A DNA stretch of 62,801 nt, the filler included. It is 8 parts of 8 records of this genome, joined end to end, with 100 filler letters (N's around TTAATTAATTAA, not from the genome) between each part and the next. Parts side by side here need not be neighbours in the genome. Positions count along the whole stretch, not along the records: positions 9,780 to 19,268 come from SRR31147125_85684; 7 more parts are not named here. One strand, 5' to 3'. The position numbers were made by a program, and so were the translations under genes. The notes beneath the pieces were generated by a model. It saw only the letters and a program-made list of their open reading frames with translations, did not search any database and was not told where the DNA came from. Each line of letters begins with the position of its first letter. Position 1 is the stretch's first letter. Shown here piece by piece: positions 2,472-54,677 of this stretch.

Positions 2472-3902
2472 TTAACCCTCTTGGGCCATGGCCTTAAATC
2501 GATCGGATTCTTCGCCATGGCCTTGATGGGCGTAGATATCGGCCACCCGTCGGTAATAGCCGTCCCTGTTTTCCGGATCTTCCTGTACCAGTTTCAAATA
2601 GATTTCAACAAGTTCGGTGGTTCTGACACCCGCGGCAAAACCGGATTCGGCAAACCCGTGCCGAAGCGGAAAATCAGGCATTCTGCCGCATCCGCTGCAT
2701 TGTTGCATCAAGCCGCCGTAAATGTCCATGGCCTTTTCGTAGGATGCCATGGCCTGGTAAGTTCGTGCCAGTGATCGCAGTAACAGTTCTTTGATCTCTT
2801 GACGATCTCTTTTTTCACATGCCGAAGGCGCTTGTTTCTTTCCATCATGGGCGGATGGAACGGATTCGTCCTCATTCCTTTGCAGCAGCCTTAGATAGTG
2901 TGCTTCCGCCCTGGAATAGTCTCCGGATTGATAATAGGTTTCCCCCAGTAAGAGGAAAGGGATGATGGTTGTCTCCAAGTTTAGGTTTTGAGTGATCCCA
3001 TCCCTATCTGTCCCATCATCCACTGCAGTGCCCTCCACGCGCTCGTCATTCACATTCACTACAGGAATGCTCAAGAATTGATTGAGAAATGCTTCCGCAC
3101 CTTGATAATCTTCCTCAGCCCAAAATGTCTCACACATGATTCGAGCCCCTTTTTCAGATCCGGGAAAATCATTCAGATACATTTTTGCATATCTTTTACT
3201 GTCCTCGTAGTCCCCCATATTCAGACAGCAGAGCGCAAGCTCCATGGAAATATGGTTTGGATGATTATTGTCCAGATTCATTTCCAGTGCCTCGAGTAAA
3301 TGATGCCGTGCGGTTTGAAACTCACCTTCATTCAAGGCCACATACCCTTTTTTGAACGCGTCCCCATAAGTGGCATATGCCTCCTGTTCCGATTCATCCA
3401 ATGTACTGCAAATCGCAAAAAAAGTTTCATCGATGATTTCATCGGAATCATGGACACTATCAACGTGTTCTCCCCCGTCAATATCCATTTCACCGGATAA
3501 TTGATCTTTCTCCGACGAAGGAATTCCGTTGTGCTTTTTTCCTTTCCCGGATTCAATTTGCTCTTTCAACGTCATGATATCCGATGTGAGTGTGCTATCC
3601 TTTGTCAAATTCAATGCAAGATCCGCAAGACTCGCTGCATCAGCCACGCAATTGAGTTCAACGTATTCATTTGCTTTTGCAAAATGCTCTTTTGCCAACC
3701 CTTCACATGCATTTTGAATTTTTTCATTAATTCGGGCGTCAAACTGATGATCAGCCGATGGCTTTTTCATGTGGCGCTCTTTAGCCTTTTCATATTCAAT
3801 TTTGGCATATCCGAACCTATCTTGGTCAAAGTATTGATCCCCCTTTGTTTCAATATCTTCCGGGGATTTTCCGGTCAAAAAACTAAACAGTCCCATTGGC
3901 AA
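2472..3902 (-). CDS. Tetratricopeptide-repeat protein with a C-terminal CxxC
   Basis: 476-aa ORF with helical repeats (LLLGETYYQSGDYSRAEAHY; LARTYQAMASYEKAMDIY) and CSGC. Confidence 0.75.
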   Translation of the reverse strand: MPMGLFSFLTGKSPEDIETKGDQYFDQDRFGYAKIEYEKAKERHMKKPSADHQFDARINEKIQNACEGLAKEHFAKANEYVELNCVADAASLADLALNLTKDSTLTSDIMTLKEQIESGKGKKHNGIPSSEKDQLSGEMDIDGGEHVDSVHDSDEIIDETFFAICSTLDESEQEAYATYGDAFKKGYVALNEGEFQTARHHLLEALEMNLDNNHPNHISMELALCCLNMGDYEDSKRYAKMYLNDFPGSEKGARIMCETFWAEEDYQGAEAFLNQFLSIPVVNVNDERVEGTAVDDGTDRDGITQNLNLETTIIPFLLLGETYYQSGDYSRAEAHYLRLLQRNEDESVPSAHDGKKQAPSACEKRDRQEIKELLLRSLARTYQAMASYEKAMDIYGGLMQQCSGCGRMPDFPLRHGFAESGFAAGVRTTELVEIYLKLVQEDPENRDGYYRRVADIYAHQGHGEESDRFKAMAQEG

Positions 3903-9679: not shown

Positions 9680-9779
9680 NNNNNNNNNNNNNNNNNNNNN
9701 NNNNNNNNNNNNNNNNNNNNNNNTTAATTAATTAANNNNNNNNNNNNNNNNNNNNNNNNNNNNNNNNNNNNNNNNNNNN
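9680..9779. other. Artificial contig linker
   Basis: N44-TTAATTAATTAA-N44, with stops in all six frames. Confidence 0.98.
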
Positions 9780-10845
9780 TTTTTCCAGCGGTATTCCCCA
9801 TGCAGCTTTTGTATTTGACTTGCATTCCTGCGAAAGACCTGGGGAACCTACTGGTTACCTCCAGAATCTTTCTCGTCACTTCAAGACAAAAACAACACTG
9901 CCCCACAAACACATATTAAAAAACATTACTTCCGATTCCATCTGAATCCATGTTTTTTAAAAAGTGTTTTTCCCCTACCCTTCTGAATGGGATTTGCTTT
10001 AGTTTGGAACCGGTGGTTGATTAGTTTGTTTCGCGCTGCAAAATTAGTAAGCCATCAAAACATCAATGGATAATACAGAGTTTTTGAAATAATCTCCACC
10101 CTCATTCTTCAGGTAGTATTATACCAAAAATCCATTGCCATTTTTCAATACACTTCCTGCATTGCCCACGAAATCAATACTAAAAATTGGCGTGCCACAA
10201 GCCGAAAGAAGTCCCAAGGGCATGGGCAGGAAATATGTGCGATACTATTACTACAGCACGGGAGGCAGCTATCCTGCTTATTGCTCCATCTGTTCAATAT
10301 GGGGAATCATTAACAGACATTAAAGCCAGTTTCATGGACTTTTCATGTGATAATTTTTCTGCTTCTGTCGGTGGTTTTATTGGAGAACGTTGGATTTCTA
10401 CTAAATTTATTGTTGTTAACCGGGTAAATGGCGTGGTCATTAATCCGAGAATCTTCGAACTAAAGGAAATTTATAGTCAGGTTAAACAAATGGTGCTCGC
10501 CGGTTCGTTCTTACCTGTAAATCATATTGCATTACATTACTGCCATCCAAAAAATAATTATAATCAGAAATCACTTTAGCAATTAATAAATTTATTCTAA
10601 AAATGCGATTGCGTTATATTGTCTTTTTTGAAAGGATAATTTGATTATTCAATGAGAACTTTGTTTGTGGTGGACTGCAATTCTATGCGTATCACTCCAA
10701 AATTTGATAATGGTATTTATTCAAACATTTACATTGGGAATAATACTAATTTGTTTTTTTGTTGTTTTAATCAATTACGGTGATAAAAGCGTTTATGATA
10801 GAACCTGAAATTATTAAAGCTTCCTTGATTGGTCTGAAATAGTTA

Positions 10846-10868
10846 CGTTGCTATGTGGTTACTACCCC
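10846..10868 (+). repeat. 23-bp direct repeat, copy 1 (copy 2 at 14734-14756)
   Basis: CGTTGCTATGTGGTTACTACCCC versus CGTAGCTATGTGGTCACTACCCC, 2 mismatches. Confidence 0.65.
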
Positions 10869-10903
10869 CTCTTGAAATAAATGGTGTTAATTATCAATGA
10901 CAT

Positions 10904-11937
10904 TTATAATTTTACAGCCCGATCCCCTACCCTCTTATATCCTAGTTCTCTTAAAAGTTTTTCGATGGGGACGGACTGGTGCGCAGCAATTTCTTCTACA
11001 GTTTGCATCGGAATCGAAACTTCTGGTTTTAGAACCTGCGATTGATTGATTTTTAAAGAATGATCTTCTCTTCTGGTTTTCTTTAATTCGGCTCGTAAAG
11101 CCCTTTCCCCTTTCTGGACCAACTTCCGTGGGGATGATGTGTTTGTGTATATTTTAAATAGAACGGCTTGAATCTTTTTTCCTTTTTTTATGATTTTGCA
11201 GCTAATGTAAAGATCTGTTTTTTCATTAATCTCTGCGATTGTACCAACTCCTTTGGCTTTGCCCTGCTTATTTAGTCTTACTGTTGGTAAATAGTGAATC
11301 CCTCCTCTTTTTTTCAAGCCCCAGTATATTTTTTAAGATATTTCTGTTGGCATCTTTATTTTTCTGTGGATTATAAGAAGTAGTTGTTTCATTAAAAGTT
11401 AATTCTTTTATTTCTTCCAAACTTAAGACATACTTAGAAATAAATTGGGATGAAGCATTTTTTAGAATTGGATAAAGCCAGAGAGAATAATTGTTACTCA
11501 GTTCTCTGTAATAATGCGGATAAAGGGTACAATACCTTTATTAGGTTAAAGAGGTATCGCTTAACATCGTTATTGAACCTGAATATTGCTGAGTAAGGAT
11601 TGTCTTCCTTTATTTTTGCCACGGCAAACAACGATAACTTTCCCCAGTGTTTTTCATCCTGTCGGTATTCCAAAGTACTCTTCTTAATACGTGATATGGT
11701 ACTTCTTAAAATATCATAGCGTCTGTTGTTGGTTTTGTTCAAATTGAGAAGGTTGAAAAGAAGATCAAAGGGAATTTGCCATTCCGGGAATTTGGCTTCG
11801 TTGCCTTTAAGACGGGACGCTAAGCTAAAAAGTAATTTTCGACTATATATATCTAGTTGGAACCGATAGTCGCTCCCTGAAAGCTGACCAGTAATTCCTG
11901 GATTCCACTTATCTGAAGATGTATCAATATATGCCAC
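10904..11937 (-). CDS. Rep_3 (RepB-type) plasmid replication initiator, split by apparent frameshifts
   Basis: ORFs 11494-11937 (YSRKLLFSL...RYDILRSTISRI...FRFNNDVKRYLFNL) and 10904-11317 (EINEKTDLYISCKIIKKGKKIQAVLFKI), bridged by a third frame (NYSLWLYPILK...LSLEEIKEL), give a typical Rep_3 winged-helix pattern. Confidence 0.8.
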
Positions 11938-12265
11938 TTATATAAATTAGTATGTAAATGCCTAATTTCTACCAGTTTTTCAATGATATAAGAGTCCGTT
12001 AAATATACTAAAAAGTAATTAAAACTAACACATTTGCTTTCTTATCTGTTAGTAATTTGTCCATATATGGCCTTCTGAAGGTGCATGGATAATGAAATTC
12101 GTCTGCATTAGTCCGATAATTATACTAATATTAGCTAAAGACGAGATTTTTCTTTCTCCAGAATAACATCGTGAAAGGAGGAGTTAACGTTGGTTCCCCG
12201 ATGTCGAATAAGGTTCCCAATGAGATAAATTTTCATATTGGCAGATGATATAGATTATTGCAAAC

Positions 12266-12293
12266 TGTCTCAATAATTATAAATTTTACGAAC
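12266..12293. promoter_or_regulatory. Tn3/gamma-delta-like res site I (resolvase crossover site)
   Basis: TGTCTCAATAATTATAAATTTTACGAAC: 28 bp, central TTATAA with AT exactly in the middle. The reverse complement resembles Tn3 res I; 110 bp upstream of the resolvase-like gene. Confidence 0.7.
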
Positions 12294-12403
12294 TACTTCA
12301 TTGGCCTTGTTTTTAATGGTTGTGTAGTTTCCTTTATTAGTTAAATTAATTAGTTTTGTAAATAGAAATAATTATTCGAACATAAACGTTTTTAATCAAT
12401 TCA

Positions 12404-13042
12404 ATGGATTTTGGCTATATAAGAGTTTGTTCCAATTTGGATGATGCCGGTCTACAAATCAAGGCATTAACCAAGGGTGGACTTGAGAAAAAGAATCTTT
12501 TTCATGATGTTGCCTCTGTAGCAAAATCTAAATGGCCCGAATTGGATAGATTACTTGCAAATGTGAAAGCCACAGATAGAATTTTCGTTTGGCGTTCAGA
12601 TAGAATAGCGAAGTCTCTTCCACATTTTATCTGGCTTGTTAATTCTCTTCACAAAAAAGGAATTTCCCTGATTAGTCTTTCGGAGCCATTGATAAACACT
12701 TCATTGGAAAATCCGGATGCCAAAGTTATTACAAACATACTGAATTGGTTCGAAGAATTTGAGCAGAATCTGCACCAGGAGCAGAATAACCATAACGAAA
12801 ATGTTTCTCGTAGAAATAAATCAAAGCTTGGCAGACCCAAAGGGGTATCATCGGAAACCATGGAAAAATATCATCGCGCTAAAGACATGTATGATAACAA
12901 GGACTATACTGTGAAGGAAATATGTCGAATGTGTAAAATTTCAAAACCACGTTTTTACGCAATACTTAAGGAGCAAAGAAATCAGCAAGAATTATTAAAC
13001 CTATCAAATCTCAAATTAACTGAAAATGCCGACAAACACTAA
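12404..13042 (+). CDS. Serine resolvase-family protein with substituted catalytic residues and a C-terminal HTH
   Basis: GYIRVCS (canonical GYARVST), VWRSDRIAKS (canonical DRLGRS), LGRPKG, and HTH TVKEICRMCKISKPRFY. Confidence 0.85.
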   Translation: MDFGYIRVCSNLDDAGLQIKALTKGGLEKKNLFHDVASVAKSKWPELDRLLANVKATDRIFVWRSDRIAKSLPHFIWLVNSLHKKGISLISLSEPLINTSLENPDAKVITNILNWFEEFEQNLHQEQNNHNENVSRRNKSKLGRPKGVSSETMEKYHRAKDMYDNKDYTVKEICRMCKISKPRFYAILKEQRNQQELLNLSNLKLTENADKH

Positions 13043-14222
13043 AATAAGTTTACCGCAAATTGGAGATGAGCATCTTTTCCGGCTGGATAAAAATGTGGCT
13101 CATAATATTCGTGATTTTCGTGCCTATGATGAAGATAAACATATAATAAAAGCTCTTATAAGTTACTTTAGTTTTAATCTGCAAAAAGATTTGTTTGGTT
13201 ACGGGACTTTGGATCCACATCATTTTGCAAAGACTATGGGCTTTTCTCCGAACTACCTAAGGTCAAAACATCCCAATCCTGCATCTTTAAGGGACATGAA
13301 CGAGAAGGAAAGAATGGAAGTTTACAAGGCACAGGATGATTATCCCGAGTATAAAGAATACCGGGTGTTTGATTCAATTCTGGAAAATGCACTTTATATT
13401 TTACGCTATGAACGTATACGCTATACTTCAGCAGGGGTAACTTTTAAGAAAGAAAAGGATGAGTTTGTAAAAATTTCCCTAAACGAAGTTCAATTCCTTT
13501 CAGAATTATCTATCGTTTTTCGAACAGGGCAACGCGGAAGGAGTAAAATCTTTTATACATACAGGCTAACAGATAGTTTTGTAAATAACATCAGTAATTA
13601 TTATTTAAAAAGTAACACAGAAACCTTAAAAAAACTAAGACAACCTGGATTGGACGAACTGTATCTTTATCTTAAAAACCTGATGACTACCTTTGCTATA
13701 AAACAGACCAATAGAGGTTTTTCAAGTTTTTCTCTTCTTTGTGAACTGGCAATGATAAATGATGCAAGGCCTCCCCAGCGCAAAAAGAAATTGAACAGGG
13801 CGTTTATTCGAATCTCCGAAACTTCAGAGATTATAGTAAAACTTAACTGGCACAAAGAAGCGGGAGCAAAATATTATTACCTACCTGAAATTGAATTTGA
13901 TAAAGTACAGGTAAAAGAAATAACAAATAAAGATAATGCTGTACTTGAACGTAAGAAAATTTTCTCACAAAATTTGAATTATGAATTTTGTTTGGCCTAC
14001 CGGCGTGAGGTTTTTGTTAATGACCTGGGGCAACCTATAGAACCTGACAAACTATTGGATTGGATGAAACACAAGAGCCATGAAGAATTGCTGATTTATT
14101 TTAATATGGCAGTGATAAAAACGTTCCGGAAACTTGGAGATGCGAGATATGGAATGGAGAGGGAATTCTTTTCAAAGTTAAGTAAAGGGGCAACACTATC
14201 AGAGGTTCTTACTTTTAAATAA
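13026..14222 (+). CDS. Hypothetical 398-aa protein, probable divergent winged-helix replication initiator
   Basis: Long ORF directly upstream of the iteron-like array. The C-terminal half (ELYLYLKNL...FSLLCELA...KKKLNRAFIRI...VKLNWHKEAGAKYYY) resembles a Rep WH2 domain; function inferred from context. Confidence 0.55.
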   Translation: MPTNTKISLPQIGDEHLFRLDKNVAHNIRDFRAYDEDKHIIKALISYFSFNLQKDLFGYGTLDPHHFAKTMGFSPNYLRSKHPNPASLRDMNEKERMEVYKAQDDYPEYKEYRVFDSILENALYILRYERIRYTSAGVTFKKEKDEFVKISLNEVQFLSELSIVFRTGQRGRSKIFYTYRLTDSFVNNISNYYLKSNTETLKKLRQPGLDELYLYLKNLMTTFAIKQTNRGFSSFSLLCELAMINDARPPQRKKKLNRAFIRISETSEIIVKLNWHKEAGAKYYYLPEIEFDKVQVKEITNKDNAVLERKKIFSQNLNYEFCLAYRREVFVNDLGQPIEPDKLLDWMKHKSHEELLIYFNMAVIKTFRKLGDARYGMEREFFSKLSKGATLSEVLTFK

Positions 14223-14466
14223 CCTTATAGGTGGTGCTTCAATTTTTTGAATAAGTTGTTATCATTCTGAAGACATACATATCCTAGTTTAATTGAGGAT
14301 GATATTTCATAGTTGAGTTTAAAACGCCTAAAGTTGGCCATACCTTGCATGCCAAGGATTAAGTCTTAACCTCAGAGGAATTACTAATTCGCCTAAAACT
14401 GACCATCGTTATAAAAGAAATTAAGGAGAGACTGCACGGAGACTACTAGGCTATTGCCTTTTAATC

Positions 14467-14475
14467 TTATCCACA
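14467..14475 (+). promoter_or_regulatory. DnaA box
   Basis: Perfect TTATCCACA within the repeat region; a one-mismatch box TGTGGATAT lies at 16414-16422. Confidence 0.55.
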
Positions 14476-14733
14476 GCATTTGAAAATTATATTCTTTCTA
14501 TAGCTATGTTTGCTTCGATAAACCTATTTGGCCTAAAACTGACCATACTCCTTAAAAAAAGATAGAAGGATACCATTTAGGCTCAGTGATCGCATAGCTG
14601 TGATTTTTGCAATCTTTCCAATAACACTCTGATATTCAATAAGTAGTTTTATGATAAAAGTGATTAACACTCAGAATTAATCATTTTTTTAGATACCATT
14701 AAATCAGCTTGTTACATGAATGTTTTCCGTTTT

Positions 14734-14756
14734 CGTAGCTATGTGGTCACTACCCC
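14734..14756 (+). repeat. 23-bp direct repeat, copy 2
   Basis: CGTAGCTATGTGGTCACTACCCC, matching 10846-10868. Confidence 0.65.
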
Positions 14757-16039
14757 ATTTAGTTAGCCTGATATAATTTCTCAGATACAATGTTAAAAAG
14801 TTTCTTTTACTTTTTTCATCATTGCATTGAATATAGTTTTATTAAACGCCTAAAACTGACCATAGCAAAAGAAGGCTTCTCGAACTTGTTTATGATTTAT
14901 GATTAGTAGGGGGAATACTAGTCGGCTTCTTCCCTAAAAACCCTAAAACCGGCTGTAATACATGTAAAGTTGTCAGGTAAAGTGTTTAATACGTAATTGC
15001 TAGAGAAAGAATTGTTGCATTTTAATTCTTTCCGCCTAAATCTAACCATCCAAAAATCTATAATGTAATCGCCTAAAGAAGACCATACCATAATTGATAT
15101 TACAAATCAACAGAATCCAATCTATTTGATGCCAGATATTTAAGTGCTTGTTTTTTTCGCCTAAAGTTAGCCATGCTAATAGGTTTTCTGGCAGAAATAA
15201 TCTTGGTTCATTCTATCGCCCAAAACTGACCATACTTAAACAGTTGTATATATCGCCTAAAACTGACCATAGTTGATATTGGAAATCAAAACGACTTAAG
15301 CTCCTTGATATTCAACCATATAAATGTTTGTCCTTTAAGGCTAATTTTAACAACACTTAGGTAGTCGTTATAAGAATGAGTTTACTTCATATTTTCGCCC
15401 AAAATTGGCTATTATTTCACAATGAGCTTGCAAAATGCAGATTATCATCTGCTTCTGACAATCTGTTCCCGGCGATTGCGGCCTAAAGTGAGCCATGCAA
15501 TTTAGGCACTCTGTGCCTATCTCAAACACTTGGAACGAAAACGCCTAAAACTGACCATGTCTTGTTCAATTTGTGTAAGGTCATTGCAATCAGGATAATA
15601 CTTCGTTATGAAGCTTAAGACACACACCGGTTTCTTATACTTAAGTCTTGCAGTAAATGTATCAGCTAATAATTGGTTGTACGACAATATTTATATGATT
15701 TTCTGGTTGAAACAATTAATTATTTCGTTTATAACGCCTAAAACTGACCATAATTTTGCGTTTTGTCCGCCTAAAACTGACCATTCCTTTGGGTAAGTAT
15801 CGCCTAAAACTGACCATGAAAGAATATCATAACGCCTAAAACTAACCATGTCTCGCTAACTTAATGCCTAAAATCGACCACACTTCGTTTCATAATGCCT
15901 AAAGTTGACCATGGAGCGATACTATTCCGCCTAAAACTAACCACCTTTGCCTTATTTCGCCTAAAACTAGCCATACTGTAATCGTTTTTTAGATTGAAAA
16001 TCAAGGTGTTATTGGCGACAAACGCCTAAAATTGACCAA

Positions 16040-16165
16040 CTTATATTATAATAATTATATACTATTATATTGTATCCGTTTTTAGTATTCAATACCTTTT
16101 GCAATATACTAATAGATATTGTTATAAACCAATATCTGCAATAATCAAAAAAACGGATTAATTAT
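16040..16165. other. AT-rich tract (candidate DNA-unwinding element of the origin)
   Basis: TTATATTATAATAATTATATACTATTATAT... immediately after the last phased repeat. Confidence 0.55.
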
Positions 16166-16638
16166 TCCCCCAATACCCCCAGGGGATTTTAATATGGCGT
16201 CGTTCCGACAGGTATTACCCCCTCCCGTCCCCCAGGGAGCAGATTTATACCACTCAACTCAATTCTCTGCATATTTACTTTTATGTTTTTAACATAATTT
16301 ACATTTTGAATAAATCTAATTCTTTTTTTAAAATTGGTTAACTCTTAATTTAGATTACTATAATCCCAAAAACTATCATCTACATTTATCAATTTAATAT
16401 TGACACCGTTGTCTGTGGATATCTAATCTCAATCGAAGATTTAATATTTATCGATTTTATGTATTTTGTAAATAAATAAAAATCGACATGTCTGGAAAAC
16501 AGATTGTTATTGATATGTTTTTAAAATAGAGCCATGTAATACAATGATAATCAGCAAATAACAAACACCTTAATAGAATATAATACGTTTGTTAAATATT
16601 ATAATTATATATATATTTGGCATATAGATTGTTTAGGT

Positions 16639-16868
16639 ATGAAAACAGTATCATTAAATATAGATGACCCAATTTTTGCAGAAACAGAAAAAATACTGGA
16701 GTCGGTAAACAAACCACGTAATCGTTATATAAATGAAGCAATCGCGTACTATAACAGAATACAACGTGAAGCTATACTGGAAAAAAACTCAAAAAAGAGT
16801 CTGGTTTAGTTAAAAATGATTCAATGAAAGTGCTTAAGGACTTTGAGGAGATTGATTATGTTGATTAA
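16639..16868 (+). CDS. RHH-like antitoxin of a PemK/MazF-type TA pair (frameshift at the A8 run near 16780); absent from the ORF track
   Basis: MKTVSLNIDDPIFAETEKILESVNKPRNRYINEAIAYYNRIQREAILEK / LKKESGLVKNDSMKVLKDFEEIDYVD*; overlaps the toxin start. Confidence 0.7.
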
Positions 16869-17205
16869 ACAGTTTGATATTTGGATCGCGGACCTAAATC
16901 CGCAGATTGGAGCTGATGCAGGAAAAATAAGGCCTGTTCTAATTGTTCAAACAGATTTAATGAACAAAATCCCCCACCCTTCCACCCTCGTATGCCCTAT
17001 GACTACAAACGTTAAAAAAGGTTCGGAAATTTTACGAGTAAACCTTAAAAAGGGAACTGGAAATCTTAATCGGTCTTTTGATGTCATGATTGACCAAATG
17101 AGAGTTATAGATAACAATAGGTTGAAAAAAAGAATGGGTGTTTTACCTGATGATTCGGTAGAATTGGTAAAAGAGAATATACAAATCGTTTTGAACCTTA
17201 TATAA
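16858..17205 (+). CDS. PemK/MazF-family endoribonuclease toxin
   Basis: DIWIADLNPQIG...GKIRPVLIVQ...VCPMTT...DQMRVIDNNRL. Confidence 0.9.
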   Translation: MLIKQFDIWIADLNPQIGADAGKIRPVLIVQTDLMNKIPHPSTLVCPMTTNVKKGSEILRVNLKKGTGNLNRSFDVMIDQMRVIDNNRLKKRMGVLPDDSVELVKENIQIVLNLI

Positions 17206-17279
17206 AGCAAAGGAAGGAAAGTAAGAGCTAAAATACCTCTCCCCTCCTATTTATAATTAATTTTCTTACGAAAGGCAAT

Positions 17280-18044
17280 ATGAAAAAAAGTAAAAACTTA
17301 GTTATCACGAATTTCAAAGGCGGTACTGGCAAAACCACCACGGCAGTTAATCTCTCCCATGGACTCGCAGACCGGGGATTTAAGGTACTGGCTATAGACC
17401 TGGACGCTCAGTCAAACCTTACTGACTTAATGGGACTTACCGGGGTATTAACAGAAGAGGATTGTATTTCAAATTCGTTAAGAGATAAACAAGTTCCTGT
17501 TACTGTAACAAATGTGAAGGAGAACCTTGATGTCATCGGAACTCACAACTCGTCAATGATAGGTATTGAAACCGAACTCCAGAATATGTTAAGGCATGCT
17601 GATAGACAACTCGACCGCTGTATTTATCCGTTCTATGAGCAATATGATTTTATTATTATGGATTTGGCACCATCTCTAAATGCACTAACAATAAATGCTT
17701 ATACAATTGCTGATCGTCTTATCGTTCCTATTGTTTCAGACTATCTCTCTTTGACCGGATTTTATGCTCTGGAAAATCGACTGAGCATCGACCTGGAACT
17801 CAACATTACTGATGTTATAATAACCAAACATGAAGCCAATACCGCACTTGCACGAGAAGTTCATGATGAACTTCTATCTAATAGAGCAAGTGTATTATTA
17901 AATTCGATTATTCCTAAAAATGTATCAATAACGGAACAGGGCGTGACAAAACAATCTATTTTTGACTATGCTCCAAAGTCAAAAGGTGCTGAAGCGTATA
18001 ATAATTTGGTGGATGAACTTATAAATAGAATGAATAATGACTAA
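17280..18044 (+). CDS. parA: ParA family partition ATPase
   Basis: NFKGGTGKTTT, IDLDAQSNLT, DFIIMDLAP, SKGAEAY. Confidence 0.93.
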   Translation: MKKSKNLVITNFKGGTGKTTTAVNLSHGLADRGFKVLAIDLDAQSNLTDLMGLTGVLTEEDCISNSLRDKQVPVTVTNVKENLDVIGTHNSSMIGIETELQNMLRHADRQLDRCIYPFYEQYDFIIMDLAPSLNALTINAYTIADRLIVPIVSDYLSLTGFYALENRLSIDLELNITDVIITKHEANTALAREVHDELLSNRASVLLNSIIPKNVSITEQGVTKQSIFDYAPKSKGAEAYNNLVDELINRMNND

Positions 18045-18924
18045 GAAACTTGGACTATCAAGAGGGCTTGGACAATTTCGGGAGGAAATTAAAGAATTGG
18101 AAGTGCTGCCTGAATTGGAGTCGCTAATTCCACCTCTTTCTGAGGATGAAAAAAAACTTCTGGAGGAATCTATTGTCAAGGATGGAATAAGAGAAGCTCT
18201 CGATGTATGGCCAAATGACGATAAATTGTATATCGTTGATGGACATAACCGATATAAAATTGCAAAACGGAAAAATATCTCTTTCAAAACCAAACAGCAT
18301 AAGTTTGGCTCAATTGAAGAAGTGAAAGAGTGGATGCTTCGTAAACAATTGGGAAGACGTAATCTTACTGATGCAAACAGAACGTATCTCATTGGTTTAT
18401 TGTATAATAGTCGGAAATCATCACATGGCGGTCGGAGAGATATTCAAACCAAGGGGCAAAATTTGCCACTTGATGAGAATGTTCAGAAAATAGGTTCTAA
18501 AACTGCTGATATTATAGCTCAGGAAACAGGTACTGCACCCAGGACAGTAAGAAATGCCGGAGAATTCGCACAAGGATTGGAGAAAGTTGATCCTGAACTT
18601 AAAAAGGATATTCTTGCAGGTAAAGAGAAAATTTCAAAGGCGGATATTCAAAAATTATCAAAGAAGAAACTGGATAAAAAAATTTCCAGTGCAGAAGAGA
18701 TTAGGCAGCAAGTAAACAATGAAGATTTCCCCAAGGAAGATGGTGTTAAAAAAAATAAAAAGGGAGCCAGTTTAAATCGCAAGAAACAAGAGCAAAAACA
18801 CTTAAAGCAAGCAAACGATATTGCAGTTCTAATAAGGAATTTTAAGAATGATATATCAGATGGTTACTCAGACAATTTTAAAACTGAATGCCTTGATATT
18901 CTTAAAAAGGAGCTCGGAGAGTGA
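18037..18924 (+). CDS. parB: ParB-like partition protein
   Basis: LGLSRGL N-terminus, LEESIVKDG, IVDGHNRY, QLGRRNL, HTH TADIIAQETGTAPRTVR; overlaps parA. Confidence 0.85.
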   Translation: MTKKLGLSRGLGQFREEIKELEVLPELESLIPPLSEDEKKLLEESIVKDGIREALDVWPNDDKLYIVDGHNRYKIAKRKNISFKTKQHKFGSIEEVKEWMLRKQLGRRNLTDANRTYLIGLLYNSRKSSHGGRRDIQTKGQNLPLDENVQKIGSKTADIIAQETGTAPRTVRNAGEFAQGLEKVDPELKKDILAGKEKISKADIQKLSKKKLDKKISSAEEIRQQVNNEDFPKEDGVKKNKKGASLNRKKQEQKHLKQANDIAVLIRNFKNDISDGYSDNFKTECLDILKKELGE

Positions 18925-18939
18925 TATGAATATTTAAAG

Positions 18940-18984
18940 ATATTGGTTTTCAAGTGGCAATATTTGCCACTTGAAAACCAATAT
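18940..18984. repeat. Perfect 21-bp inverted repeat; candidate parS site and/or terminator
   Basis: ATATTGGTTTTCAAGTGGCAA-TAT-TTGCCACTTGAAAACCAATAT; the core recurs inside parB at 18450-18473. Confidence 0.75.
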
Positions 18985-19268
18985 TGAAAGGAGAAGAGTC
19001 AATTTATCAGTCTTCGTTATGTATGATTAGAAAATGGTGTATGAAGAATGGATTTCTGATAAATCTGATTCTGGTTTTCTGCAAGGGCTTAGAATTATTA
19101 ATGTCGCAATTGGCCTTTTCTATGTAGTGATTACATAAAATTGCCAATTAATCCTTGTGGGAAGCAGGGGAAACAAAGTAGGAGAGAGGATAGCTGATAT
19201 TTTTAGAAATAGGATAAAGCATTTCAAAAAAATCAACTTGCCCACTAAAACGAATGGAATTTTGAAAA

Positions 19269-19368
19269 NNNNNNNNNNNNNNNNNNNNNNNNNNNNNNNN
19301 NNNNNNNNNNNNTTAATTAATTAANNNNNNNNNNNNNNNNNNNNNNNNNNNNNNNNNNNNNNNNNNNN
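19269..19368. other. Artificial contig linker
   Basis: N44-TTAATTAATTAA-N44. Confidence 0.98.
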
Positions 19369-25371: not shown

Positions 25372-25471
25372 NNNNNNNNNNNNNNNNNNNNNNNNNNNNN
25401 NNNNNNNNNNNNNNNTTAATTAATTAANNNNNNNNNNNNNNNNNNNNNNNNNNNNNNNNNNNNNNNNNNNN
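25372..25471. other. Artificial contig linker
   Basis: N44-TTAATTAATTAA-N44. Confidence 0.98.
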
Positions 25472-35828: not shown

Positions 35829-35928
35829 NNNNNNNNNNNNNNNNNNNNNNNNNNNNNNNNNNNNNNNNNNNNTTAATTAATTAANNNNNNNNNNNNNNNN
35901 NNNNNNNNNNNNNNNNNNNNNNNNNNNN
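35829..35928. other. Artificial contig linker
   Basis: N44-TTAATTAATTAA-N44. Confidence 0.98.
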
Positions 35929-41320: not shown

Positions 41321-41420
41321 NNNNNNNNNNNNNNNNNNNNNNNNNNNNNNNNNNNNNNNNNNNNTTAATTAATTAANNNNNNNNNNNNNNNNNNNNNNNN
41401 NNNNNNNNNNNNNNNNNNNN
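41321..41420. other. Artificial contig linker
   Basis: N44-TTAATTAATTAA-N44. Confidence 0.98.
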
Positions 41421-47735: not shown

Positions 47736-47835
47736 NNNNNNNNNNNNNNNNNNNNNNNNNNNNNNNNNNNNNNNNNNNNTTAATTAATTAANNNNNNNNN
47801 NNNNNNNNNNNNNNNNNNNNNNNNNNNNNNNNNNN
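47736..47835. other. Artificial contig linker
   Basis: N44-TTAATTAATTAA-N44. Confidence 0.98.
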
Positions 47836-54577: not shown

Positions 54578-54677
54578 NNNNNNNNNNNNNNNNNNNNNNN
54601 NNNNNNNNNNNNNNNNNNNNNTTAATTAATTAANNNNNNNNNNNNNNNNNNNNNNNNNNNNNNNNNNNNNNNNNNNN
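54578..54677. other. Artificial contig linker
   Basis: N44-TTAATTAATTAA-N44. Confidence 0.98.

Follow-up and report, generated by a model that had tools for sequence, protein, structure and literature searches.

A probable iteron-controlled plasmid replicon with three-turn repeat phasing and a putative initiator from an uncharacterised, largely Bacteroidota family

The DNA analysed here (the window, 62,801 nucleotides in all) contains a 9.5-kb contig on which the gene of a 398-amino-acid (aa) protein, rep, is followed by a long array of 17-bp direct repeats. We conclude that this contig very probably carries the basic replicon of an iteron-controlled theta-type plasmid, in which the 398-aa protein (P0001) is most likely the initiator and the 17-mers are its putative iterons. 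The core of a first-pass annotation of the same DNA, which had proposed a theta-type origin where phased iterons and an AT-rich tract are joined by additional scattered iterons and a divergent initiator, is supported by our results. However, its description of an undescribed system is too strong, and the protein and its array are better regarded as a well-known kind of system whose family is uncharacterised. The parts of the proposed origin are as follows.

13026-14222, + strand: rep, gene of the 398-aa putative initiator, with a first winged-helix domain at residues ~17-197, a second at ~198-292 and a family-specific helical C-terminal domain at ~293-398
14325-15558, + strand: scattered tier of 12 co-oriented putative iterons, four of them perfect, spaced 37-317 bp apart and out of step with the helical turn
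15735-15974, + strand: phased block of eight putative iterons with a mean period of 31.9 bp, about three helical turns
16023-16039, + strand: terminal putative iteron, 65 bp (about six turns) beyond the block and touching the AT-rich tract
15999-16011, + strand: match to the IHF-type consensus, WATCAANNNNTTR, within the gap of 65 bp and 24 bp ahead of the terminal iteron
16040-16160: AT-rich tract with 30-nucleotide (nt) windows of 6-30% GC, candidate DNA-unwinding element
16161-16240, + strand: C-rich island of 46-66% GC, 3' of the AT-rich tract, with two 24-nt repeats that contain CCCCC tracts

The 17-mer CGCCTAAAACTGACCAT has 17 matches with three or fewer mismatches, all on the + strand and all inside 14325-16039, whereas shuffled sequence gave a mean of 0.10 matches and none of 100 shuffles reached 17. 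Four weaker copies, at 15158, 15396 and 15865 (four mismatches each) and at 15480 (six mismatches, marginal), bring the total to 21, the number of co-oriented repeats that had been claimed. Seven copies are perfect, those at 14530, 15217 and 15833 carry one mismatch, that at 15033 carries two, and the six weakest carry three to six. The spacings reported earlier for both tiers were reproduced exactly. From start to start they are 65, 140, 317, 186, 37, 88, 59, 37, 142, 84, 62 and then 193 bp in the scattered part, and 33, 33, 32, 32, 31, 32, 30 and then 65 bp in the phased part. At least three helically phased direct repeats are expected of an iteron replicon; here eight follow one another at 30-33 bp and a ninth stands 65 bp further on, with the same + orientation throughout. 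Information content is limited to the 17 positions, with none in the spacers, and the conserved core is bipartite: CGCCTAAA and GACCAT are separated by 3 bp, and the centres of the two blocks lie about one helical turn apart. The scattered tier also holds a 44-nt repeat (15087-15130 and 15266-15309, 73% identical, containing TTGATATT...AAATCAA) just 3' of the iterons at 15070 and 15254, which could be a second motif.

The stretch that contains the array had been described as having no credible open reading frame (ORF), and the largest ORF that we found between 14223 and 16638 encodes 62 aa. Since the repeats are regular and the spacers variable, the array might instead be transcribed and processed into small RNAs, CRISPR-like or other. 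CRISPR arrays have repeats of at least 23 nt that are often palindromic, spacers of at least 26 nt, and cas genes. Here the repeat is 17 bp and non-palindromic, the spacers are 13-16 bp and there are no cas genes. The array stretch gave no match below E=0.69 in the Rfam scan, no tRNA in a tRNA search and no terminator-like sites, and its promoter-like sites were not above those of shuffled sequence. The RNA folding energy of the phased block was ordinary in comparison with shuffles on both strands (z -0.81 and +1.09). We therefore give almost no credence to an RNA array.

The predicted fold of the 398-aa protein is that of the iteron-binding initiators. AlphaFold2 modelled it from a 110-sequence alignment with a predicted local distance difference test score (pLDDT) of 94.4 and a predicted template-modelling score (pTM) of 0.91, and the domain limits given above were taken from the secondary structure of this model. 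Foldseek returned 25 matches in the PDB at E<=0.001, and each of the 48 rows listed above rank 50 is an iteron-binding initiator, namely Pi in complex with iteron DNA (2nra), RepE (1rep, 8ac8, 8aan, 2z9o and the RepE54 co-crystals) or domains 2-3 of RctB (5tbf, 5ubf). The probability of these matches is mostly 1.00 (a few are 0.97-0.99), with TM-scores by target of 0.32-0.58 and identities of about 10%. The model thus contains the tandem winged helices that had been anticipated, and the idea of a highly divergent initiator stands. A search of a viral structure library also placed replication initiators at the top. In the ESM Atlas, the nearest neighbours of the whole protein are Bacteroidota clusters without a Pfam family that are auto-named 'Replication initiation protein', and Rep3_N clusters appear at 0.91. 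The helical C-terminal domain of about 105 aa reached a pLDDT of 87.8 when folded alone on 10 sequences. It gave no Foldseek match in the PDB at E<=0.001, and in the ESM Atlas it gave weak leads (0.78-0.82) to Rep3_C and L_lactis_RepB_C clusters that are below the evidence level of the tool.

The first-pass annotation called this protein an orphan, which is wrong because a complete HMMER search across 1.84 billion representatives found 230 homologue clusters at E<=1e-3 (of which 173 reach <=1e-10 and 37 reach <=1e-30), with lengths of 360-480 aa in most cases. The protein is full length by this comparison, as residues 5-397 align with a 400-aa relative. A word-indexed search yielded 27 proteins, the best of them 63% identical, with no precomputed Pfam domain and with 'hypothetical protein' as the sole name. 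Named relatives are almost all from Bacteroidota and are all annotated as hypothetical. The protein itself had no match in Pfam (no family at E<=0.01), NCBIfam (noise only, at E 0.011 and 0.058), PHROGs or PADLOC.

The association of gene and array is found in the relatives as well. By tblastn the family was detected on six of 72,556 plasmid records (Alistipes, Chryseobacterium, two of Tenacibaculum, Dyadobacter and Pontibacter), all complete and all with the protein annotated as hypothetical. Two more family members used as tblastn queries against the plasmids gave nothing beyond the same two records, megablast of 13026-16430 against plasmids gave no match, and a tblastn search of 50,697 phage records detected no member. 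Species-representative genomes, scanned with the 25 closest sequences as query, added 12 loci, all from Bacteroidota except for one 5.5-kb contig binned with an Oscillospiraceae metagenome-assembled genome (MAG). In total 19 places were examined, the window and L001-L018; L015 is cut by a contig end, which leaves 18 of full length. The closest relatives (59-63% identity: P0152, P0002 and P0153-P0158) are known as proteins only and stand outside the array count. The gene is accompanied by an adjoining array of at least five co-oriented repeats in 16 full-length places out of 18, downstream in 11 and upstream in five, and two or more successive spacings of 31-33 bp occur in 14 of the 16 arrays; those of L016 and L017 mix 21 bp with 29-30 bp. 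The places are partly non-independent, since L007, L008 and L009 have identical proteins, L006 is 90% identical to them, L004 and L005 are 77% identical to each other, and L003 and L018 share the same repeats at the same spacings. After allowing for kinship, about 11 lineages are represented, nine of them with three-turn phasing.

The sequence of the repeat varies together with the protein, as had been suggested for a true initiator and its sites. Repeats are the same or similar where the proteins are 57-100% identical (L004/L005, L006-L009, L016/L017 and L003/L018), and they are unrelated between proteins of 40% identity or less. The layout also recurs: the scattered copies lead into a phased block, which is separated by 50-76 bp (near 5, 6 or 7 turns) from one final copy, and AT-rich DNA comes next. 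In the window, the 100 bp on the 3' side of the last iteron are 81% AT, against 61% in the neighbourhood, and the AT-rich tract described earlier beside the phased repeats is therefore real. Across the 15 arrays measured, the 100 bp 3' of the array always exceed the locus mean in AT content, and in 11 of them they also exceed the 100 bp on the 5' side. An IHF-type match lies about 20 bp before the last copy, on the + strand, in the window, L003 (6647) and L018 (5648). The strict form of this pattern occurs 3 times per 1,006 bp of gaps and 17 times per 149.5 kb elsewhere in the loci, a 26-fold difference.

Some loci show features of their own. Short GC-rich islands lie 3' of the AT-rich tract at a similar distance in L010, L012 and L016, as the C-rich island does in the window. 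The Saccharicrinis locus L006 has 25 iterons at 2628-3700, upstream of rep, mostly in six 169-bp units of three (spacings 35, 45 and 89), and this array is recently amplified. In two of the three identical Saccharicrinis/Plebeiibacterium loci an IS66-family transposase gene lies upstream of the array (L007, 316-1671; L008, 1513-2868), and in L008 it sits between parA and the array. The contigs that bear these two copies are 294 kb and 476 kb long, and very large molecules are thus among the carriers of the replicon.

The genes around the relatives belong to plasmid backbones and encode ParA, toxin-antitoxin pairs, toprim proteins, MobC/NikA and ArdC. On the contig of the window the gene order is a 130-aa ORF, Rep_3, recombinase, rep, the array, a 56-aa ORF, toxin, ParA, a ParB-like ORF and a palindrome. 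The features outside rep and the origin, together with two DnaA-box matches, are listed below.

9780-19268: replicon contig, 9,489 bp, GC 34.4%, with a linker on either side
First in contig gene order: unassigned ORF of 130 aa
10904-11937, - strand: Rep_3-type initiator gene in three reading frames (Pfam Rep3_N 1.2e-12, Rep3_C 4e-7)
12404-13042, + strand: serine-recombinase (resolvase) homologue of 212 aa (Pfam Resolvase 4.7e-20)
14467-14475, + strand: DnaA box TTATCCACA, a perfect match to the consensus, not above chance in the window
16414-16422, - strand: DnaA-box match with one mismatch, at chance level
16639-16809, + strand: 56-aa ORF without a family match, presumed antitoxin by its place upstream of the toxin
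16843-17205, + strand: PemK/MazF-type toxin of a type II toxin-antitoxin pair (Pfam 3.8e-26)
17280-18044, + strand: ParA partition ATPase (Pfam AAA_31 4.3e-38, CbiA 4.1e-19)
18037-18924, + strand: ParB-like protein, weakly supported (PHROG ParB-like families 3.5e-5 and 2.5e-4, no Pfam match), overlapping the end of parA
18450-18473: imperfect copy of the palindrome (88-92% similar) inside parB, candidate centromere site
18940-18984: perfect palindrome with 21-nt arms just 3' of parB, candidate parS site or transcript-end hairpin

A toxin-antitoxin pair and parAB had been predicted here. Pfam confirms the pair and ParA, and the ParB assignment is weakly supported by PHROG matches (E 3.5e-5). 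Centromeres made of many direct repeats are known, such as F sopC and R1 parC, and with parA and parB 1.2 kb downstream the array might be, in place of an origin, a partition centromere to which the adjacent ParB-like protein binds. However, the fetched loci of nine array-bearing relatives out of 15 contain no ParA (L001, L003, L004, L005, L007, L010, L014, L017 and L018), and in all of them a rep homologue adjoins the array. The array abuts an AT-rich tract and its repeat tracks the Rep protein. The palindromes at parB, which are candidate parS sites distinct from the iterons, are with their two copies a better centromere candidate. We consider a partition role for the array very unlikely.

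It was also considered whether the iterons belong to the Rep_3 gene, which the first-pass annotation did not mention, while the 398-aa protein has another role. Rep_3 proteins are the classic iteron binders, and this gene lies 1 kb upstream of rep and 2.4 kb from the first repeat. It is, however, broken by at least two frameshifts, with the first winged helix in an ORF at 11494-11937 and the second in one at 10904-11317, and no repeats were found near it; the recombinase gene and rep separate it from the array. A Rep3_C-only fragment of 184 aa also adjoins the family member on a Chryseobacterium plasmid (L002, 7151-7705, - strand), but among the 17 loci whose ORFs were scanned with Pfam L002 alone has a Rep_3 match, and the annotation of L018, which was outside the scan, names no initiator. 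The 398-aa family is present in all array-bearing loci and has, by prediction, an initiator fold itself. On the complete 82.8-kb Alistipes plasmid no other protein is named an initiator, a result weaker than it looks given that the PLSDB gene table is incomplete. Ownership of the array by Rep_3 is thus highly improbable, even less likely than the centromere. The two degraded Rep_3 genes beside the family, in the window and in L002, may reflect replicon replacement.

The resolvase homologue had been called dead. Consistent with this, a Cys is aligned at the nucleophile Ser and a Lys replaces one conserved Arg, while the helix-turn-helix is intact. The 3' end of its gene overlaps the start of rep by 17 nt, and the protein may have been retained to regulate the rep operon by binding DNA.

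Several observations weigh against the proposal of an iteron-controlled plasmid replicon on this contig or lend it no support. DnaA boxes at 14467 and 16414 had been cited in its favour; both matches are present, but the whole window has 26 DnaA-box matches against 17.3 +/- 3.5 expected, which is chance level, so they are not evidence. A perfect DnaA box within the array is shared only by the window and L004. An apparent enrichment of DnaA boxes across the loci (25 against 16) was rejected, because the iterons of L003/L018, L007, L009 and L014 match the relaxed pattern themselves. The relaxed IHF-type pattern adds L010 (2592) and L014 (6269), with all matches 19-24 bp before the terminal iteron, but it was chosen after the gaps had been inspected and the motif is partly post hoc. 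At the level of sequence profiles there is no link between the family and Rep_3: of 110 family members searched with the Rep_3 hidden Markov models (HMMs), one touches Rep3_N (E 0.0015) and two touch Rep3_C (best 0.0047), all weakly, and a search of PDB sequences with the family profile found no initiator even at E<=10. Arrays were not detected in the fetched DNA of L011 and L013, and the iteron of L010 was not found in L011, whose protein is 82% identical. No iteron-like operator was found upstream of rep or of the recombinase gene that overlaps it (three or fewer mismatches, none outside 14325-16039), so that autoregulation is unexplained. Finally, the analysis shows the repeats with their geometry, the predicted fold, the family, and the co-occurrence and co-variation of gene and array, the last two of which support binding and autonomous replication indirectly; we infer binding of the protein to the 17-mer, the melting site, copy control, replication and the activity of this copy.

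The frameshifted Rep_3 gene and the recombinase without its Ser nucleophile bear on this last point, since broken neighbouring genes mean that the element could be decaying or the assembly error-prone. The contig ends, when compared for circularity, have no terminal overlap, and the six weakest repeats have been noted above. The contig may thus hold the right kind of replicon as an inactive relic, either a decaying fragment or a copy integrated elsewhere. On the other hand, rep is full length, and a 1.7-kb stretch of non-coding DNA that is otherwise unique retains seven perfect iterons and four more with one or two mismatches. The reading frames of the toxin, ParA and the ParB-like protein are open, and the layout is the same as in relatives on complete plasmids. 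A relic is unlikely in our view, although it is the strongest of the rival explanations that we weighed.

The setting of the contig in the window gives no information on the host. The window consists of eight contigs (5.4-10.4 kb, GC 34% to 55%) joined by seven artificial 100-bp linkers, each made up of 44 N, TTAATTAATTAA and 44 N (9680-9779, 19269-19368, 25372-25471, 35829-35928, 41321-41420, 47736-47835 and 54578-54677). Many genes are cut at contig ends and the affinities of the contigs are mixed, Desulfobacter-like in some cases and Eubacteriales/Firmicutes-like in others. A sigma-54 regulator on another contig, cut short, is 80% identical to Desulfobacter proteins, and the closest relatives of a GH88 enzyme on another are MAG proteins named Eubacteriales, Firmicutes, Defluviitaleaceae and Faecousia. 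As a whole, the window represents a bin or draft in concatenated form rather than one molecule. As the contigs flanking the replicon contig are unrelated to it, neither the host nor chromid status can be read from the flanks, and the earlier suggestion of a chromid is unsupported for a replicon on a separate 9.5-kb contig in a taxonomically mixed set.

If the iteron-controlled replicon is accepted, the following mechanism can be proposed. Each of the two winged-helix domains of the initiator would read one half of the bipartite iteron, CGCCTAAA or GACCAT; the fold and the one-turn separation of the conserved blocks suggest one monomer per site. The eight sites at about 32 bp, three turns apart, would align bound monomers on one face of the DNA, and cooperative Rep binding requires helical phasing according to the accessible passages of one paper (PMC4980987). 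The ninth site, six turns further on, would stand against about 120 bp of 80%-AT DNA, the putative place of strand opening. A host bending protein in the 65-bp gap may aid opening, and so may an initiator that grips the melted strand, as for RepE. According to the abstract of another paper, RepE binds iteron double-stranded DNA together with single-stranded DNA of the unwinding element (PMC10602881), and the position of the terminal iteron against the AT-rich tract fits this model of joint holding of duplex and melted strand. The host helicase and replisome would load next. The 12 unphased upstream sites might keep copy number low by serving the initiator as a sink or pairing partner, by analogy with P1 incA and F incC. 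Stability of the plasmid would come from MazEF-type addiction, from ParA/ParB and from a centromere, for which the separate palindrome is a candidate. The additional C-terminal domain may, as a speculation, account for the extra turn per site. A more far-reaching proposal is that the family has an origin geometry of its own, with one monomer per three turns, an unphased copy-number sink, a conserved bend site before a lone iteron by the melting region, and a C-terminal domain that fills the extra turn and makes neighbour or pairing contacts. We regard this full scheme as tentative and rather doubtful.

The nearest known systems are RepE of mini-F (ori2 and the incC iterons) and Pi of R6K gamma. 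Like the 398-aa protein they have two winged helices, they are its best Foldseek matches, and their origins also have direct co-oriented sites by an AT-rich unwinding element. Another shared feature is an additional group of sites outside the origin for copy control, the role of incC in F. The present system differs from RepE and Pi in that identity is about 10% without a profile-level match, in the size of the protein (398 aa against about 250, with the helical domain of about 105 aa that has no PDB match), in the period (about 32 bp against about 22 bp) and in the position of both tiers on the same side of rep. The Pfam Rep_3 proteins (PF01051 and PF21205, and lactococcal RepB with its C-terminal domain PF06430) are of the same fold class, but the Rep_3 HMMs (PF01051/PF21205) do not recognise the 398-aa protein. 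Fold and layout put it in the RepE/Pi/Rep_3 class, and sequence profiles leave it outside Pfam Rep_3. Rep_3 iterons are typically about 22 bp apart, two turns, against the mean of 31.9 bp here and the 31-33 bp of most arrays in the family.

RctB, of Vibrio chromosome 2, is comparable in other respects. Its domains 2-3 are among the top fold matches, it exceeds a minimal initiator by a C-terminal extension, and its origin sites are accompanied by outlying regulatory sites, two features that resemble the present system. RctB has four domains and about 650 aa, and it acts on methylated GATC-containing 11/12-mers, on 39-mers and on crtS. In contrast, the protein here has 398 aa, the 17-mer consensus has no GATC, and the 9.5-kb contig has no chromid context.

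The number and period of the iterons had been described as unusual. Classic plasmids have 3-7 iterons per origin, as stated in the accessible part of one paper (PMC4980987), against 21 sites here. Nevertheless, arrays of 36 bp x 10.4 copies in IncR and 37 bp x 24.3 copies in IncN are given in passages of another (PMC9412624), so that periods of three turns and more and numbers above 10 are not unprecedented. These arrays belong to plasmids of Enterobacteriaceae with different proteins (IncN RepA, IncR RepB). In the same passages they are reported as tandem units, whereas here the 17-bp core alone is conserved and a separate unphased tier is present. In the accessible passages of a phylogeny of winged-helix plasmid initiators, 24.2% of these proteins are without any Pfam domain, most Bacteroidota plasmids fall into clades A and H, and neither origin layout nor iteron period is treated (bioRxiv 10.1101/2024.09.03.610885). 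The present family probably belongs there. Our literature search, which left most subscription journals and older papers outside its reach, found nothing on this initiator family, its origin, or the iterons of Bacteroidota plasmids.

These results describe an initiator family that is coherent and uncharacterised and that has a three-turn origin geometry across its members; it is not surprising in principle and leaves the textbook picture of iteron replication unchanged. They also illustrate how poorly the replication modules of Bacteroidota plasmids are annotated, since the six plasmid-borne relatives are entered as 'hypothetical protein' and the family libraries that we scanned miss the protein of the window. 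Naming the family, with its 230 clusters, and its origin layout would make it possible to recognise and type plasmid contigs of this phylum. The loci are candidates for minimal replicons in genetic tools and vector building, and they offer a natural test of the coupling among iteron spacing, initiator size and cooperativity. If the tentative scheme of an origin geometry of its own were true, the family would represent a replicon type that spans the phylum Bacteroidota and departs from the two-turn Rep_3 model, and it would be a ready source of vectors for hosts that have none.

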